Below are positions 21,998 to 27,962 of a DNA stretch of 27,962 nt, piece by piece. Positions within the stretch are counted from its first letter, which is position 1. Each line of letters begins with the position of its first letter. The position numbers and the translations under genes are program-made. The notes under the pieces are model-generated. The model saw nothing but the letters and a program-made list of their open reading frames with translations, ran no database searches and had not been told where the DNA came from. Origin of the DNA: Candidatus Nanohaloarchaea archaeon (GTDB lineage Archaea > Nanohalarchaeota > Nanosalinia > Nanosalinales > Nanosalinaceae); contig JBDGSJ010000001.1 in assembly GCA_042217585.1 (NCBI GenBank), forward strand, positions 22,777-50,738. Reading direction: 5' to 3'.

Positions 21998-23866
21998 TCA
22001 GATCTCCTTCTGAAGTATCGGGTCGTAGACCGTCTCTCCCTCCGAAAAGTAGGGATACCTGACCCGTGAGACCTCCGCATCCCGGAGTTCAGAGGCAGCC
22101 TCCTCCTCGCTGATCTCGTACTCTATCAGGTCCTTCTCCGGGACCTCTTCGTCCTCTATATCCACGCTGAAAACGGTCTCAACGGGACTCATACCGTCCT
22201 CCTCCAGCAGGCCGCGGGACCTGAGCGCGCTCACGATGGAGGCGGACTTGGACATCTGTATATCAAGCTCCTCGACTATCTCCTCCCGGGAAAGCCCCTG
22301 CCTGAGAAGTTCCAGGAACTCCCCGTGAGTCCCCGTCGCCCTCTCCTCCTCCGCCTTTATCTCGCCGTTCTTCCCGTCGACAAGCAGTTTCTTCTCATCG
22401 TTCTGGACCAGGTAGAGAGGGTAATACGAGGCGGTGTAATCCTCGCCGGTCCTCTGGGACACCTCCTCGAGGGATTCCGAAGGGGTGAAGCACCGGACCT
22501 CCTCCTTCTCGACGTAGGTATCATTGGTCTGGGTCTCCCCGCCGTGCCTTGATTTCCTGGTCCTCACGTCCGTCATGACAGGGTACTCGTTGCCGAGGAC
22601 GAAACACACGCCCGGTGGAAGCGATTTTATCATGGACTCCACCTCGGAGGTTATGCCCTCGAAGGACTTCGATATCGCTTTCAGGTCGTTCGGGTTGGTG
22701 ACCCTCAGGATGAACTGGGTGTTCGCCTGGCTGAGCACGTTCTTGTCGATCCTCGCCGGCCTCTGGGAGATGAAACCCATCCCGAGCCCGAACTTCCTGC
22801 CCTCCGAAGCTATCTTCCTGAGTATCGAGTTCGATATCGCCTGTCCGAACCCTTTCTCCGGCATGAAGTTGTGCGCCTCCTCCACCACCATGATGAACGG
22901 CGGTATCCTGTTCTTCTTCCTCAGTTCGAAGAGGTTCTTCGCCAGCAGGTACATCGCCATCTCCGCGGTATCAGGCTCCACCGCCCTCATGTTCACGACG
23001 GTCGCTCTCCCGGGCTCAAGGAACTCCTCCTCGAGGTCCACAGCGTCCTCGCCGAACAGACCGGTGTTCTCCAGCTGTTCAAGGTAGTTCAGCAGGTTCC
23101 ACTTCGCGCTGGAGTCCTCCTGCGAGACCGCGTCCTGGAGGTCCACGAGGTTGTACTCCTCGTCCTTGTCCTCCAGCCGCTTGGTCGCGTTGTAAAGGAC
23201 CCCCATCTGGGAGTTCGTCAGGCTGTCAGGTATCAGGGTCTGGATCTGTCTCTTGTCCATGTTGACCGAGTCAAAACGTAACTGGCGGGCCTCCTGGTTC
23301 ACATCAGTGTTAGGAGAGAACTCCGCGACATCGTAGGTCCTCGGCTCTCCCGACTCAGGGTTTTCAGACCTGAAAGAAGAGTACTCGCCGTGAGGATCTA
23401 TAACAAGGACCGGAAAGTCTTCCTCAAGCATTTCCTCGATTAAGACTCCTGCGAGATAGGATTTACCGGCGCCAGTCTGTGCAAGGACCGCGAAATGCTT
23501 GTAGAAGTCTTCAGGGTCGACATGGATGTCGATCTCCGGGTTGGTCTCCAGAGTACCGATCCTGAGTCCTTCCTGTTCGTCGAGGCCGAGGGTGTCGGAT
23601 ATGAGCTCCTGGTCCGCCTTGTAGACTATTGAATCCGGTTCTATTACTCTTCTCGGTGCCTTGGTGAGTCCTTTATCCCTGTATCCTATTATGTTGGCGT
23701 GAGCCGTTGTCTCTCCGTCGGGCTTCTTCTTTACCTCGTCAACCTGGGCAAGTATCCATTTTCCGTTGCTCTTTACTGAAACGAAGTCGAACTTTCTTAC
23801 CTCTTCTACAGCCCTGAAACGGAAAGAAGAGGTATCGACCTTTCCCTCTATCGTGCCTAGTTGCAT
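21998..23866 (-). CDS. HerA/FtsK-family ATPase (HAS barrel, DUF87 and C-terminal wHTH-like extension)
   Basis: Start reassigned to ATG 23866 (MQLGTIEG...). Walker A 'AQTGAGKS', Walker B 'MVVEEAH', 'EGRKFG', 'SQRP', 'NPND'; C-terminal 'EIVEELDIQMSKSASIVSALRSRGLL'. Confidence 0.92.
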   Translation of the reverse strand: MQLGTIEGKVDTSSFRFRAVEEVRKFDFVSVKSNGKWILAQVDEVKKKPDGETTAHANIIGYRDKGLTKAPRRVIEPDSIVYKADQELISDTLGLDEQEGLRIGTLETNPEIDIHVDPEDFYKHFAVLAQTGAGKSYLAGVLIEEMLEEDFPVLVIDPHGEYSSFRSENPESGEPRTYDVAEFSPNTDVNQEARQLRFDSVNMDKRQIQTLIPDSLTNSQMGVLYNATKRLEDKDEEYNLVDLQDAVSQEDSSAKWNLLNYLEQLENTGLFGEDAVDLEEEFLEPGRATVVNMRAVEPDTAEMAMYLLAKNLFELRKKNRIPPFIMVVEEAHNFMPEKGFGQAISNSILRKIASEGRKFGLGMGFISQRPARIDKNVLSQANTQFILRVTNPNDLKAISKSFEGITSEVESMIKSLPPGVCFVLGNEYPVMTDVRTRKSRHGGETQTNDTYVEKEEVRCFTPSESLEEVSQRTGEDYTASYYPLYLVQNDEKKLLVDGKNGEIKAEEERATGTHGEFLELLRQGLSREEIVEELDIQMSKSASIVSALRSRGLLEEDGMSPVETVFSVDIEDEEVPEKDLIEYEISEEEAASELRDAEVSRVRYPYFSEGETVYDPILQKEI

Positions 23867-23950
23867 CCTGTAGAAGGAGGGTCTCTGAATATTGATAAAT
23901 CGTCCCCCGAGGCAGATGGTTTTAAGAAGATGATCTCCTCTTTCAGCCAC

Positions 23951-24391
23951 ATGGACATCATCCCGGAGAGACTGCGAGAGGGACCGGAGAGACATCTTTT
24001 CTTCCTGGCGGTCTCCGTCGTGATAATCGCGGGTTTCGCGGCTCTCCACAACGTCCGCACGCCGGACAGCAGCGTCGAGGTCGGCTACACGGAGATCACG
24101 ACCGAGTGCGCCGGCATCGATGTGGGGATCTGCCTGGGTATCGAGCGCAGGGACCACACCACCTACAACTACGATTTCTACGAGGAACCAGAGAACGGGA
24201 CCGAGAACTACTACAGAAGGATTGAATCGGAGCTGATGGTCCGTGCGTACAACACGTGCGGAGGAAACATCACCGGGATGGAGTGGACCTCCGAGGTCTC
24301 CTACATGAACAGGACCGGGGAGGAATGGAACAGCCTGGAGGAAGTCGAACTTCTTCCCTGCAGCAAGACCTTCTTCCGCGAGATGAAGTGA
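23951..24391 (+). CDS. Membrane-anchored exported protein with four Cys
   Basis: TTTTAAG at 23920-23926 supports ATG 23951; one TM; 'CAGIDVGIC'; sequons. Confidence 0.75.
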   Translation: MDIIPERLREGPERHLFFLAVSVVIIAGFAALHNVRTPDSSVEVGYTEITTECAGIDVGICLGIERRDHTTYNYDFYEEPENGTENYYRRIESELMVRAYNTCGGNITGMEWTSEVSYMNRTGEEWNSLEEVELLPCSKTFFREMK

Positions 24392-24446
24392 GAGGGAACC
24401 GGTTTAAGATTTTCCCCATTAAAGGTTCTCAAGAGGTGCTGAAACG

Positions 24447-24938
24447 ATGACAGAGGAAGAGCATGTCGAAAGGACGTTTATCGCTCTAAAACCCGATACC
24501 GTGAAGAGAGGGCTCGTCGGAAACATCGTGTCCCGGTTCGAGGACGCCGGCTTCAAGATAGCCGGGATGAAGATGGTCTGGGCCACCGATCAGCTCCTTG
24601 AACAGCACTACGAGGAACACGTCGACAAGGACTTCTACGAAGGTCTCGCCGAATACATGAAGGAGGGACCGATCGTGGCGATGGTCCTTGAAGGAGTCCA
24701 CGCCGCGAAGAACGCCCGGAAGATCGTAGGCGACACAGACGCCTCAGAGGCGGCACCTTCAACCATCAGGGGTCAGTACGGCCACATGTCGATGGAGCAC
24801 GCCGACACCGCAGGAAAGAACTACAAGAACATCATCCACGCCGCCGAGCCTGGCGAGGCCGAGAAGGAGATCGGCATCTGGTTCTCCGAGGACGAGCTCC
24901 ACGAGTACGAGACCGCACAGGAACAGGAAGTGATGTGA
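24447..24938 (+). CDS. ndk: Nucleoside diphosphate kinase
   Basis: 'ERTFIALKPD', 'HYEEHVDKDFY', 'GPIVAMV', 'PSTIRG', catalytic His in 'NIIH'; GAGGTG SD. Confidence 0.96.
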   Translation: MTEEEHVERTFIALKPDTVKRGLVGNIVSRFEDAGFKIAGMKMVWATDQLLEQHYEEHVDKDFYEGLAEYMKEGPIVAMVLEGVHAAKNARKIVGDTDASEAAPSTIRGQYGHMSMEHADTAGKNYKNIIHAAEPGEAEKEIGIWFSEDELHEYETAQEQEVM

Positions 24939-25142
24939 GTGGGCGGAAGGCTCTACAGGTCCGAGGACGACTACATGCTGTGCGGGGTCTGCGGAGGGAT
25001 CGCAGAGGTCTACGACCTCGACCCCTCGCTGGTCCGGCTCGTCACCCTGCTGCTCGTTTTCTCAGGTGTCTCGCCTCTCCTGTACCTCGTCGCCTGCCTG
25101 ATCATTCCGAAGGAGAGCGAGATTGAAGCCGAGGAATCTTGA
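24939..25142 (+). CDS. pspC: PspC domain membrane protein
   Basis: 'LYRSEDDYMLCGVCGGIAEVYDLDPSLVRL...LYLVACLIIP'. Confidence 0.9.
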   Translation: MGGRLYRSEDDYMLCGVCGGIAEVYDLDPSLVRLVTLLLVFSGVSPLLYLVACLIIPKESEIEAEES

Positions 25143-25151
25143 GACATCACC

Positions 25152-25159
25152 TTTATATC
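25152..25159 (+). promoter_or_regulatory. TATA box of the peptide/cyclase cassette
   Basis: TTTATATC 22-29 nt before ATG 25181, the same spacing as other genes in the window. Confidence 0.6.
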
Positions 25160-25180
25160 AAGAGACGAGAAAGGGGATTT

Positions 25181-25327
25181 ATGGGAGGACATGATGGATC
25201 CGGAGACGGTCGAGGAGGTCGGAACTATGGAAGCCCTGAAGCTTCTGCCAGGGATTTCCTCCAGAAAACTTCTCTGACCTCAAACGGACTTATCACCAGA
25301 GTCAGGGAGAAGTTGGCAAGAGAGTAA
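25181..25327 (+). CDS. 48-aa peptide, candidate RiPP (lasso-like) precursor
   Basis: MGGHDGSGDGRGGRNYGSPEASARDFLQKTSLTSNGLITRVREKLARE. Has its own TATA box, and its stop is directly followed by the GGTGA SD of the next gene. Confidence 0.6.
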   Translation: MGGHDGSGDGRGGRNYGSPEASARDFLQKTSLTSNGLITRVREKLARE

Positions 25328-25337
25328 GGGTGAAATA

Positions 25338-27110
25338 ATTTCAATAGTCATCGGGGCTCTAAAGCGCAGTACACAAGGCCCCGATGTACGAAATTTATTA
25401 TCAGGAAAAAACTCTTCTTTCCTCGAAAAAGATACCTCGAAAGGTAAACTGGTACTCGGGTTCCAGGAGGGCAATAAAACACCAAAGGGCTCCGGAGACC
25501 AGCCTTTAACGTCAAATAGATATCATCTTGTTTTCAGCGGAAGAATAGATAACAGGGAAAAACTTGCTCCCGACAAAGAAGAGGTTCCTGACTCAGAACT
25601 CTTTCTATCCCTCCTGAATCAAAAGAGCATCACGTCATTGAAAGAAATCGTAGGGGCGTTCAGTGCCATCGTCTGGGATCGCAGGAAGGAAAAAATGTTT
25701 CTCATGAGAGACAAGACGGGAATAAGACATCTCTACTACAGTGAGAATGATAACCTGATTGCCTCTAACCACATTGGCAAACTACTTAGTTCGGAGACTG
25801 TGGAGCATAAACCCAACAAAAAAGTCGTAGCTGAACACCTTATTGGGGATCCTGTTAAACGCTCAGAAACATTCTATAAAGGCGTGATGTCGGTCAGAAA
25901 CGGATCAGTAGTCAAGATAGACGAAAATATATCTCGGAAAAAATACTGGCGCCCGGGGAATCGTTCAGAACAGTTAGATAAAATGAACGAAAAGGAACTG
26001 GTCCAGGAACTTAGATCTCTACTGGAAAGAGCTGTCAGGGACCGTATGAGGTCTTCAAAAAGCTCAAAAATCGGTGTGATGATGAGCGGAGGCAAGGACT
26101 CCACCTCTTTAGCCTATATCGCCGATAAAATTGAGGATATATCAGTCTGTTCAATAACCTTCCCGGAATTACCCGATATGGATGAGAGCAATATGATAAA
26201 TACTGTGGCAAGCGATCTAGATGGAGAGTTCTATGAATTCGATGGAAGTGAAAAATGGGCACTGAAACAAATCGACCCATACAGAGAAGCTGCTGTATGC
26301 GGTCCAAGGTTCGACTCCAATGTCTTCCTGAATAAGGATTTTTACAATTACTGTTCCAAGAACAACCTTGACATATTAGTAACTGGCATGGGAGGAAATT
26401 TGCTGGATGGAACTAGAATCAAGTACTGGGACCTTTTGAGATCGGGAAAACTTGGGACATTGGCCCGAGAAATATTCATGGATCCTGTTAATTCAGAGAA
26501 AATCCTGTACTGGTACATACTGAAGCCTCTGGCATCCAGCATCTTGAAAAGAGAGCTGGAAATCCCGGCGTGGATAAGCGAGAAGACTACCGAAAAGATC
26601 AAGAGAAATCATGAAGAAAGACGGTACGCTCCTTCCCTTCAGGTTGAATACAGGAACTACTTCGGACCACACAGATTCCTAAGCCTTGATGCAGAGAACA
26701 TCCTCGCTGATAATTTTAATATAGAGTTCAGGGAACCATTCTATGATTCCCGTCTCGTTGATTTCATATTTTCTCTACCAGTGGGCTATCGAATGAGGAA
26801 AGGCGAGAAAAAATACCTTTTCAAAAAATCCATGAGAGGCCTAGTGCCAGATAAAATAATAGAGCAGGAAAAGGATACCAGCCTTGATCCTCTCACAGAA
26901 AAGGGATTCAGAGAAAAGGAAAAATCCCAGCTAAAAACTTTACTACTGGATAATCCCGAACTAATCAAGAGAAGTTACGTCAAACCTGAAAAATTTAGAA
27001 GCTACGTAAGATCCTATTTAGAAGAGAAAAATGGAGAAACACAGAAGTTCTGGAAGGTGGTGGCCACTGAAATATGGCTGAGAACCATAGAAAACAGGTC
27101 AATGGAATGA
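25338..27110 (+). CDS. Asparagine synthetase B-like / lasso cyclase-like ATP-dependent amide-forming enzyme
   Basis: Frame is open from 25278. Upstream of the track start lie 'DQPL...LVFSGRIDNREKL...DSEL'; then 'GAFSAIVWD', 'RDKTGIRHLYY', PP-loop 'MSGGKDST', 'DES', 'LVTGMGGN', 'FREPFYD', 'KYLFKKSMRGLVP'. Start placed at ATT 25338 by inference. Confidence 0.85.
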   Translation: MSIVIGALKRSTQGPDVRNLLSGKNSSFLEKDTSKGKLVLGFQEGNKTPKGSGDQPLTSNRYHLVFSGRIDNREKLAPDKEEVPDSELFLSLLNQKSITSLKEIVGAFSAIVWDRRKEKMFLMRDKTGIRHLYYSENDNLIASNHIGKLLSSETVEHKPNKKVVAEHLIGDPVKRSETFYKGVMSVRNGSVVKIDENISRKKYWRPGNRSEQLDKMNEKELVQELRSLLERAVRDRMRSSKSSKIGVMMSGGKDSTSLAYIADKIEDISVCSITFPELPDMDESNMINTVASDLDGEFYEFDGSEKWALKQIDPYREAAVCGPRFDSNVFLNKDFYNYCSKNNLDILVTGMGGNLLDGTRIKYWDLLRSGKLGTLAREIFMDPVNSEKILYWYILKPLASSILKRELEIPAWISEKTTEKIKRNHEERRYAPSLQVEYRNYFGPHRFLSLDAENILADNFNIEFREPFYDSRLVDFIFSLPVGYRMRKGEKKYLFKKSMRGLVPDKIIEQEKDTSLDPLTEKGFREKEKSQLKTLLLDNPELIKRSYVKPEKFRSYVRSYLEEKNGETQKFWKVVATEIWLRTIENRSME

Positions 27111-27781
27111 GCAAATTTTACGAAGATTATCCAGATCTCTACGACTGTCTCTACAGTCAGGAGCTCCATGAAGACTTCGTTAACTTCGTCCTACAAAATA
27201 TCGATCTTGAAACGGATGAATCTTTGCTTTCAGTCGGATGCGGAACAGGAGAAAAGGTAAAAATGCTTGAAAACTCAGGTATGGACGTAACTGGCTTAGA
27301 ACCAGCACAAAAATCTTTTGAAAAGGCGAAAGAGAAGACTTCTGCAGATCTCAGGAAAGATTCCATACCGAATTCGGATCTGGAAAGCCGATTCGATGTT
27401 GTGGTAGCACTGTTCTCTGTCCTCAATCACATCGATACCGACAGAATAGAGAATTCGATCCGAGAGCTTTACTCTCTAACCTCTGAAGGCGGAACCCTGA
27501 TATTCGATATCCGATCTTTTCCCGAAGACCCTGGATGGACATTAGAACTTTTCGGAAGCGGGCTGGAAAAAAATATCAAGGCCGAGAAAATCACAAGAAA
27601 AGAGTCCTCTTTTGTCAGAAAAACGGCAGTAGTAGGACCCAGAGGTATTTTCTTGGACAAGGTTGAATTTACGGCGCTGGAGGAATCCAATATACGATCA
27701 ATACTGGATGAAATGGAGTGTGATTACTCAGTCCACCGGGAACACAGAACCGAATTCATCTTCTTCGTTGTAAAGAAATAA
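27107..27781 (+). CDS. Class I SAM-dependent methyltransferase
   Basis: ATGA overlap with the upstream stop; 'YDCLY', motif I 'SVGCGTG', 'VTGLE', 'FDVVVALFSVLNH', 'EGGTLIFD'. Confidence 0.9.
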   Translation: MSKFYEDYPDLYDCLYSQELHEDFVNFVLQNIDLETDESLLSVGCGTGEKVKMLENSGMDVTGLEPAQKSFEKAKEKTSADLRKDSIPNSDLESRFDVVVALFSVLNHIDTDRIENSIRELYSLTSEGGTLIFDIRSFPEDPGWTLELFGSGLEKNIKAEKITRKESSFVRKTAVVGPRGIFLDKVEFTALEESNIRSILDEMECDYSVHREHRTEFIFFVVKK

Positions 27782-27930
27782 ACGGATTTTCAGCATTTAT
27801 ATACCGTCAAGGACCTCTGACCGGTACATGGTTATTTCTCACAGTTTTCTCCCTGTTTACCGGAGGAAAAAGCTTGGTTAAAAAGCACCCTCCAGATGCC
27901 ATCGTCGATCATCCGCCCTGTCTTTTCCTT

Positions 27931-27962
27931 TTACCTGTACTCCATAAGTTTCTCGACATCGA
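27931..27962 (-). CDS. Possible 3' end of a convergent gene entering from outside the window
   Basis: Minus frame reads ...DVEKLMEYR* with host-like codons; too short to verify. Confidence 0.3.
   Translation of the reverse strand, partial: DVEKLMEYR

Follow-up and report, generated by a model that had tools for sequence, protein, structure and literature searches.

The window examined here, a stretch of 27,962 nucleotides from Candidatus Nanohaloarchaea archaeon (G000:C1:22777-50738, its end coinciding with the end of the contig), carries toward that end a cassette of three genes: a small open reading frame (ORF) encoding a peptide, then a homologue of the asparagine synthetase AsnB that lacks the N-terminal Cys, and then a class I methyltransferase (Table 1). 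The genes are as tightly coupled as the first-pass annotation of this DNA had claimed: the enzyme's probable start lies 10 nt past the peptide stop, and the methyltransferase ATG at 27107 overlaps the enzyme TGA (ATGA). Compared across genomes, the conserved unit is the putative peptide together with the enzyme, and we suggest that the two may form a leader-free, lasso-type system, in which an N-terminal macrolactam would be closed on a peptide that begins directly with its core. The canonical lasso pathway consists of a leader-bearing precursor (A), a RiPP (a peptide that is ribosomally synthesized and then post-translationally modified) recognition element (RRE, B1), a cysteine protease (B2) and a cyclase (C). 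A leader-free system of this type is plausible and unproven; we put it forward tentatively, as a reading that falls somewhat short of probable and that fits the sequence better than any of its rivals.

The peptide sequence that the annotation had quoted is present in the small ORF, and once the initiator Met is removed Gly stands at position 1 and Asp at position 8 (the numbering used below); the peptide matches no Pfam or NCBIfam family. Methionine aminopeptidase (MetAP) removes Met before Gly, and a type II MetAP is encoded in the window genome (297.4 bits against a cut-off of 222.65), so that the peptide would be expected to lose its Met.

Table 1. Features at and around the cassette (positions are those of the window).
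Feature	Position	Strand	Basis
Small ORF, 48 aa, MGGHDGSGDGRGGRNYGSPEASARDFLQKTSLTSNGLITRVREKLARE (MGGHDGSGD...), candidate substrate peptide	ATG 25181 to TAA 25325-25327	+	ORF list
Cys-less AsnB homologue, lasso-cyclase type, 590 aa, probable ATT start	25338-27110	+	Pfam, NCBIfam, tree, signature residues, model
Class I S-adenosylmethionine (SAM) methyltransferase, 224 aa, ATGA-overlap start (alternative ATG 27074)	27107-27781	+	Pfam
TATA-like box tttatatc, 29 nt 5' of peptide ATG; putative promoter of a leaderless mRNA	25152-25159	+	hexamer spacing
Purine-rich, Shine-Dalgarno-like aagggtga between peptide stop and enzyme start	25326-25333	+	sequence; putative function
Strain-variable low-GC island holding the whole cassette	25122-27907	.	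contigs of two DNA runs and GC
Second TATA-like box (27796) and 17-codon mini-ORF MVISHSFLPVYRRKKLG (ATG 27828) at right end of island	27796-27881	+	hexamer spacing
HerA-type ATPase	21998-24157	minus	Pfam
Nucleoside diphosphate kinase	24447-24938		Pfam
PspC-domain protein	24939-25142		Pfam

That peptide and enzyme belong together is suggested by the other loci at which the enzyme occurs. The window enzyme was searched against 61 relatives in the phylum and then, as a profile of three enzymes, against all 70 genomes. Its subfamily was found in two of the 70: the window genome (G000) and another nanohaloarchaeon of the same family but a different genus (G002), which has two paralogues, on its contigs C6 and C19, for a total of three loci. 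These score 906-981 bits on the profile, the next best match 122.5 bits, and the distant matches with listed ORFs mostly have the Cys-bearing N-terminus of AsnB-type enzymes (a paralogue on contig C18 of the window genome excepted). The G002 paralogues are about 30% identical to each other and to the window enzyme, and all three enzymes occupy stop-free frames of 575-590 aa. At C6 a 49-aa ORF, MGKDDGSYEHQQPGRVKSSGKYNSTVENVKQYVRENPSSVINRVKNKLK, ends 12 nt before the enzyme ATG; at C19 a 42-aa ORF, MGKRGDHPDSMGHHGSSDVNKSSATMRNEARDLIYENFLSQK, starts 14 nt past the enzyme stop and is followed after 15 nt by a gene that resembles, by eye, an aminoacyl-tRNA synthetase. Both G002 peptides are annotated by NCBI as hypothetical proteins. 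A peptide thus lies beside the enzyme at all three loci, upstream in two and downstream in one, so that adjacency is kept and order is not. The three loci have unrelated flanking genes: one for PspC, one for a DHH phosphoesterase, two that match no Pfam family and, again by eye, aminoacyl-tRNA-synthetase-like ones. On the minus strand of the C6 locus (L015 3446-5080), two paralogous genes of 254 and 283 codons from stop to stop, neither with a Pfam match, lie divergently upstream of the C6 pair. A peptide-enzyme fusion through frameshift or read-through was considered and rejected: the C6 pair is in one frame, but TGA-TAG stands between the two and the enzyme has its own ATG.

The annotation had proposed a search for M-G...[DE] peptides beside homologues of the enzyme, and this turned up an ORF of 42-49 aa with an acid at position 8 at each locus: D8 in the window, E8 at C6 and D8 at C19 (counted from the first ATG), every peptide beginning M-G. 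All three therefore have the small residue at core position 1 and the Asp or Glu at 7-9 that mark a lasso core, in what is a small set of acid-rich peptides. A profile of the three peptides matches the same three loci only among the 70 genomes (all other matches have E of at least 0.047), and neither peptide nor enzyme was found alone in them. In Smith-Waterman comparisons against 3000 shuffles, the window and C6 peptides align from end to end (score 41 against 20.8 +/- 4.2, p = 0.0013), collinear from M-G-x-x-D-G-S to I-x-R-V-x-x-K-L. What the peptides conserve is above all their extreme N-terminus, with Gly1 and the acid at 8. In the C19 peptide (L016 322-352, minus) the N-terminal motif occurs twice in tandem, MGKRGDHPDS and then MGHHGSSD; of the two ATGs, the first alone is preceded by a correctly spaced TATA box.

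The spacing of such boxes offers a handy test of whether a small ORF is real. Offsets of TATA-like hexamers were measured throughout G000 before 718 ATG-initiated ORFs of at least 200 aa; they peak at -31 to -27 (counts of 11, 32, 23, 11 and 7, with 0-7 at other offsets), and a hexamer lies at -34 to -24 before 11.1% of these long ORFs versus 0.6% of random sites. So sharp a peak implies that, in this nanohaloarchaeon, most promoter-proximal genes are leaderless. The three peptide ATGs have their boxes at -29 (window) and at -30 and -32 (the two G002 loci), and each peptide mRNA start is therefore placed at about the M-G ATG; no correctly spaced TATA-like box precedes an enzyme start, the start of the methyltransferase or the second ATG of C19. 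Against the 0.6% background, three such boxes are very unlikely to be due to chance, which speaks for the small ORF as a real feature. Its translation is presumed. An N-terminal leader before the core appears to be lacking: the putative ring Gly is residue 2 of the ORF, and the box at -29 puts the start of the mRNA near the ATG.

The enzyme has every feature that had been ascribed to it: GRIDNR (25539-25556), an intact PP-loop (SGGKDS, 26085-26102), a TGxGG motif (TGMGGN) and no Cys near its start. Pfam finds Asn_synthase (6e-40) and GATase_7 (2.3e-16), the two-domain architecture of AsnB and of the amidotransferases described by TIGR01536, TIGR03108 and TIGR03104, which share the SGGxDS PP-loop. 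The combination expected of a lasso cyclase, an intact PP-loop without the glutaminase Cys, is present; the loop is formed by residues 250-255, of which S250, G252 and D254 are invariant in 41 aligned sequences. Among NCBIfam models the lasso cyclase NF033535 ranks first (184.5 bits, cut-off 525) and asparagine synthase TIGR01536 second (179 bits, cut-off 267.1); neither is passed, both AsnB-type curated cut-offs are missed, and the G002 paralogues reach 174.1 and 181.0 bits on NF033535, likewise under its cut-off. The best single-sequence relative among 5.8 billion proteins (P0003, E 1.2e-34, 27% identity, 93% coverage) does pass NF033535, at 755.7 bits. Closer relatives (P0064 onward, 415 down to about 260 bits) emerged when 1.84 billion representatives were searched with a profile built from the three nanohaloarchaeal enzymes. 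When 36 of these near relatives were compared with NCBIfam at E <= 1e-75, 11 listed NF033535 alone (all below its cut-off), 25 listed no family and none listed an AsnB-type model; the clusters of 10 near-clade proteins bore no usable names, and the ESM Atlas gave generic Asn_synthase clusters only.

A phylogeny, which the annotation had called for, places the enzyme on the lasso-cyclase side and not with asparagine or glycan amidotransferases. The tree (66 rows, IQ-TREE quick search, with support from the Shimodaira-Hasegawa-like approximate likelihood ratio test only, and with many rows of long branches and unusual composition) has a support-100 split between a Cys-less group of 54 rows and 10 AsnB-type proteins joined by the window genome's two other AsnB paralogues. 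Within the Cys-less group, 13 lasso-labelled rows (nine from scanned loci, four named by NCBIfam scores) cluster with support 84, and a clade of 38 rows (support 99) unites the window enzyme with the two G002 paralogues and 35 metagenomic proteins. The three nanohaloarchaeal enzymes are not one another's closest relatives there, the window enzyme pairing with P0068 (support 93). Full identity with lasso cyclases could not be upheld: the enzyme lies outside the cyclase clade that is verified by gene context, and it misses the NF033535 cut-off. As for the two other paralogues of the window genome, the one on contig C4 is an MCGIAG-type AsnB, and the one on C18 (L025 640-2385, minus) is Cys-less too (it starts MSFSGIGG) and sits on a long branch of the AsnB side; it adjoins a gene that resembles, by eye, a DegT-type aminotransferase, and it may be a glycan amidotransferase.

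Further scans, of metagenomes (21 loci), genomes (nine) and viruses (80 loci kept), gave only the two loci of G002 or relatives that are 21-38% identical over the best aligned segment; by tblastn, none of the distant-relative loci among these encodes a near-clade member, and none was found in the phyla of G060 (one genome), G059 (401 genomes), G057 (38) or G058 (329).

Group-specific alignment columns agree with the tree. Nine positions are common to lasso cyclases and the near clade and are not found in AsnB, among them D-G-R-I-D-N-R in place of the N-G-E-I-Y-N-Y of AsnB (which we take to be the glutaminase motif of AsnB-type enzymes) and Arg472. The three enzymes read S/H/D-G-R-I-D-N-R/E/Q at this signature (S-G-R-I-D-N-R in the window), and all keep R69, D71, R472 and L581. 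Residues conserved in AsnB-type rows have been exchanged, Cys2 and the Glu that aligns with window residue 355 among them, with Ser in the window enzyme where 82% of AsnB-type rows have Cys. The best solved matches of the predicted structure in Foldseek are beta-lactam synthetase chains (1mc1_A, E 3.0e-22), followed by TsnB9, AsnB and carbapenam synthetase; 1q19_A gives a TM-score of 0.64 by query length. No lasso cyclase is detectable by profile in the PDB, so comparing folds does not separate a cyclase from the other AsnB homologues that lack the Cys. PADLOC, run for a possible defense-system reading, reported nothing for enzyme or peptide and a weak generic methyltransferase match for the third gene.

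The start of the window enzyme is unusual. Its frame, open over 25278-27110, contains no ATG, GTG or TTG before TTG 25638, a codon inside the N-domain, and the GATase_7 match and the NCBIfam alignments begin well 5' of this TTG. One public gene call nonetheless starts there (490 aa, P0002) and another reads a CTG (query residue 38) as Met (553 aa); going by the AlphaFold2 model, both leave off part of an N-terminus that folds with confidence. In the nearest relatives the protein opens with M-S-G-I-V-A-V or similar, and from 25338 the window reads ATT-TCA-ATA-GTC-ATC-GGG (I-S-I-V-I-G). Modeled from this ATT, the protein has a mean pLDDT (predicted local distance difference test score) of 92.2, with 88-95 in its first four 10-residue blocks and its first strand at residues 3-9. 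Because the N-termini of the relatives align there and the model folds confidently from it, we consider ATT 25338 the likely start. Such a start, so close behind the peptide stop, suggests that it is read by coupling to the small ORF or else at low efficiency.

We also looked for the helpers of a canonical pathway, as the annotation had proposed, and neither the RRE nor the lasso B2 was found in G000 or G002. The best PqqD/RRE (B1, PF05402) match in G000 has 13.1 bits (E 0.11), and G002 has none at E <= 1; Transglut_core3 (B2, PF13471) stays under its cut-off of 26 with 24.3 bits, in a 965-aa frame that lies on another contig, and the lasso B2 model NF033537 reaches 19.4 and 13.4 bits (cut-off 33). 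Canonical clusters look different. In bacteria, PqqD and/or Transglut_core3 flank the cyclase in five of the nine loci scanned (L026, L032, L050, L052, L053). In the low-GC archaeal phylum of G058 (L158-L171), a canonical-clade cyclase occurs in 42 of 329 genomes; ORFs were listed for six of these loci and nine picked ORFs were scanned with Pfam. L160 and L162 have PqqD and Transglut_core3 both directly upstream of the cyclase; beside it stand PqqD in L164 and L167 and Transglut_core3 in L166, so that B1 and/or B2 accompany the cyclase at five of the six. Canonical lasso clusters are thus not rare in archaea. The bacterial loci had further features of their own: a PRMT-like (PrmA/PRMT_C) methyltransferase gene follows the cyclase in five of the nine (L033, L049, L050, L052 and L053; four of the five are titled Terriglobia, and L033 is a metagenome contig), three of these (L050, L052, L053) have B1 and/or B2 besides, L050 and L052 also have an HPr-kinase-like gene, and L026 has two tandem cyclase genes.

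The third gene of the cassette stands apart from the other two. It has the Rossmann-type SAM-binding domain of class I methyltransferases (Methyltransf_25, 6.8e-12, 46.4 bits, cut-off 27; Methyltransf_11, 6.7e-11, 43.1 bits, cut-off 21.2), no methyltransferase subfamily passes its NCBIfam cut-off, and its next best match is to a paralogue, 31% identical, at another place in G000. A unit of peptide, cyclase-like enzyme and methyltransferase had been proposed; the methyltransferase is indeed part of the window's cassette, but it is not conserved with the pair, and for want of a match in G002 it is better regarded as an accessory of the island on which the cassette lies. The window peptide, alone of the three, contains G-R-G-G-R, and to tie this motif to the methyltransferase would be speculation.

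That island is strain-variable. Three ordinary high-GC genes lie upstream of the cassette; near 25150 the GC content drops from 0.49-0.62 to 0.41-0.43 (bins 25501-27500), and the island as a whole has 42% versus 57%. Logan contigs from two DNA runs (X1 and X2) of one salt-lake study were aligned to 24400-27962; since the assembly may itself derive from these runs, they do not count as independent support. In X2 a single contig of 5092 nt covers 24400-27962 unbroken, and because it crosses the whole stretch the GC junction is no assembly chimera. In X1 the assembly graph breaks at 25058-25087 and at 27908-27937, and two alleles are present: a cassette-bearing one (2880 nt, depth 19.8, covering 25058-27937) and a cassette-less one (210 nt, depth 6.26) in which 25121 is joined to 27908, skipping 2786 nt and carrying 116 other letters between the two points. 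Part of the population therefore lacks the 2.8-kb unit, and the three genes are gained or lost together as one 2.8-kb island. Graph breaks at both edges of the island probably explain why the contig ends where the window does. No convincing repeats flank the island, Rfam gave no match (E <= 0.1) over 24000-27962, and a tRNA scan of the window found no tRNA gene. At the right end of the island the ATG at 27828 has a TATA-like hexamer at -32; the 17-codon ORF that it opens could be a further leaderless mini-gene, the hexamer could be a promoter for something else, or the arrangement could be due to chance.

Taken together, these features can be read as a minimal module for peptide modification that was acquired horizontally. 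A TATA box of its own would drive a leaderless mRNA for the 48-aa peptide, the enzyme would be translated from ATT 25338 by coupling to the peptide ORF, and MetAP would expose Gly1. The enzyme, an ATP-dependent, PP-loop adenylating enzyme of the lasso-cyclase lineage, would then activate Asp8 at its side-chain carboxylate and link this to the Gly1 amine, giving an 8-residue N-terminal macrolactam (a loss of 18 Da) on a peptide of about 47 residues. The long basic C-terminal part might thread the ring; its role would lie in recognition or in whatever function the peptide itself has. The methyltransferase would bring a further modification in this strain. Put generally, this would be a two-gene, leader-free, lasso-type pathway in which the ribosome and a housekeeping MetAP deliver the ring Gly and one enzyme closes a Gly1-Asp/Glu8 lactam, a scheme that in such detail we regard as doubtful rather than likely. 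We are equally reserved about its fuller form, in which the pathway would make a peptide natural product, a mini-protein of about 45 residues, with neither RRE nor leader peptidase, on a strain-variable island of a genome-reduced DPANN symbiont.

A number of observations weigh against this reading. The evidence comes from three loci in two genomes. The enzyme belongs to a sister clade and is not nested among the cyclases whose loci hold B1 and B2, its score on the lasso model is no better than its score on TIGR01536, and its near-clade relatives may have ordinary leaders along with B1 and B2. As the two genomes are incomplete (89.7% and about 82%), the helpers are to be called "not found" and not "absent." The methyltransferase was not found in G002 at E <= 1e-5 and is missing from both G002 loci. 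The lack of a canonical start codon may mean that the enzyme is poorly made or decaying. The peptides, at 42-49 aa, would have a putative tail of about 39 residues; known lasso precursor cores are about half as long, and a long tail is hard to thread. The similarity of the peptides is weak beyond the window and C6: BLASTP finds no alignment for any pair, the shuffle test gives p = 0.024 for window and C19 (G-H-x-G-S-x-D, A-R-D) and p = 0.47 for C6 and C19, and the peptide profile finds no further member among the 5.8 billion proteins, in which small ORFs often go uncalled. An acid at position 8 in three acid-rich peptides could be due to chance (a rough estimate is 0.03-0.05), and MAFFT places the second M-G of C19 (ATG 322) opposite the window start, which would leave Asp7 as the acid or the first ten residues as an extension. 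A prediction of the enzyme-peptide complex scored 0.01 against a mark of 0.32 with controls not run, and counts neither for nor against binding. Thus, of the leader-free lasso idea, the pairing, the lineage of the enzyme and the missing helpers have held up, while membership in the verified clade, the curated cut-off and strong homology among the peptides have not.

Of the competing explanations, the one that survives best keeps the peptide as substrate and changes the reaction: the enzyme might form an Asp/Glu-Lys isopeptide, place an external amine or ammonia on Asp or Glu, or join Gly1 to another carboxylate. Pairing, promoters and island speak for it exactly as they do for a leader-free lasso system, and all three peptides have several Asp/Glu and Lys residues. 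With the enzyme outside the verified cyclase clade and under the cut-off, the reaction may differ, and the solved relatives are varied (beta-lactam synthetase, the hydroxyamidotransferase TsnB9, carbapenam synthetase). On the other hand, what is conserved in the peptides is the extreme N-terminus (M-G, G-S and the acid), not Lys or the C-terminus. To our knowledge, moreover, joining the N-terminus to a side chain as a lactam is the only peptide-modifying function of the Cys-less lineage. Passages of a review likewise give N-terminus to side-chain lactam formation as the peptide chemistry of this lineage (PMC9266682). We regard some other amide chemistry as unlikely, while still a serious contender.

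The small ORF might instead be no substrate at all, serving as a coupling or regulatory upstream ORF or encoding a small partner protein, with the enzyme acting elsewhere. The window enzyme, without a canonical start and directly behind the small ORF, probably depends on it for translation; the gap at C6 is similarly short, the C19 small ORF lies upstream of the synthetase-like gene and not of the enzyme, and the peptides resemble one another weakly. A coupling ORF, however, has no need of conserved ends, yet the window and C6 peptides align end to end; at C19 the peptide comes after the enzyme, with a TATA box to itself, a misfit for an enzyme leader; and peptide and enzyme stay together at all three loci, with neither found alone in the 70 genomes. 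We think this quite unlikely.

Decay of a lasso cluster is improbable, in our view: the leader-bearing precursor, B1 and B2 would have been lost, the small ORF would be incidental and the enzyme would be turning into a pseudogene. An ATT where the relatives have ATG would fit such a history, as would a low-GC, strain-variable island absent from part of the population and canonical archaeal clusters that keep B1 and B2 right beside the cyclase. Against it stand three long open frames with PP-loop and signature residues kept, the confident model, the absence of variant letters at 25338-25340 in the two DNA runs, and the G002 paralogues, which have diverged to about 30% identity and each still keep a peptide, an arrangement that argues for long-term selection on the pair. 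Finally, an ordinary asparagine synthetase or glycan/exopolysaccharide amidotransferase next to a chance ORF would account for the Pfam domains (Asn_synthase and GATase only) and for a TIGR01536 score near that of the lasso model, but it is highly improbable given that Cys2, NGEIYNY (here SGRIDNR) and other AsnB-conserved residues are lost, that both AsnB cut-offs are missed across a support-100 split, that the genome already has the C4 and C18 paralogues on the AsnB side, and that the promoter spacing and the pairing at all three loci are unlikely by chance.

Set beside known systems, the cassette resembles a canonical lasso cluster in its Cys-less, AsnB-homologous PP-loop enzyme with the D-G-R-I-D-N-R-type signature and Arg472, in its adjacent small peptide gene and in having Gly at core position 1 and Asp/Glu at 8. 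It differs in having no leader (the putative core starts at residue 2), in the failure to find B1 and B2 in either genome, in the length of its peptides and in an enzyme from a sister clade that falls far below the lasso cut-off. From AsnB it is set apart by the replaced Cys2, N-G-E-I-Y-N-Y and Glu (residue 355), by scores below all curated cut-offs and by its place in the tree. Beta-lactam and carbapenam synthetases, its best solved structural matches, are Cys-less AsnB homologues that form an acyl-adenylate and then close an amide ring intramolecularly; unlike the cassette enzyme they have small-molecule substrates and no adjacent peptide gene, and identity in the fold alignments is 12-18%. 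Bottromycin-type precursors have an N-terminal core and a C-terminal follower and lose their Met to an aminopeptidase, and the cassette's putative core likewise comes directly after the initiator Met, with a possible follower for recognition. Bottromycin, however, has an amidine macrocycle made by YcaO enzymes, not an AsnB-type lactam, and a dedicated aminopeptidase in its cluster. A methyltransferase as an accessory gene is a further likeness to some lasso clusters, among which such genes are mentioned in review passages (PMC9266682); according to the same passages, the described lasso pathways all need leader, RRE and dedicated protease before the cyclase acts. Passages from the literature (PMC11541754, PMC9266682, PMC13352647, bioRxiv 10.1101/2020.11.25.399105) describe no leader-free lasso system, and no such system appears among the titles and abstracts that literature searches returned.

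The unusual lasso-type logic that was suspected in this DPANN archaeon has therefore gained a peptide-enzyme pairing at three of three loci, and has not gained a place inside the lasso-cyclase clade. If the reading is correct, the cassette would give the lasso lineage its first RiPP whose core stands at the N-terminus; the lasso-cyclase lineage could do without leader-guided processing, and a minimal system of one peptide and one enzyme would be available for engineering. It would also mean that nanohaloarchaeal symbionts with genomes of about 1 Mb invest in modified peptides, perhaps for their dealings with the host. Even if the chemistry proves to be different, the comparison defines an uncharacterized, lasso-cyclase-like clade (35 metagenomic proteins and the three described here), which in these nanohaloarchaea is tied to a small partner ORF and, in the window, to a mobile island.

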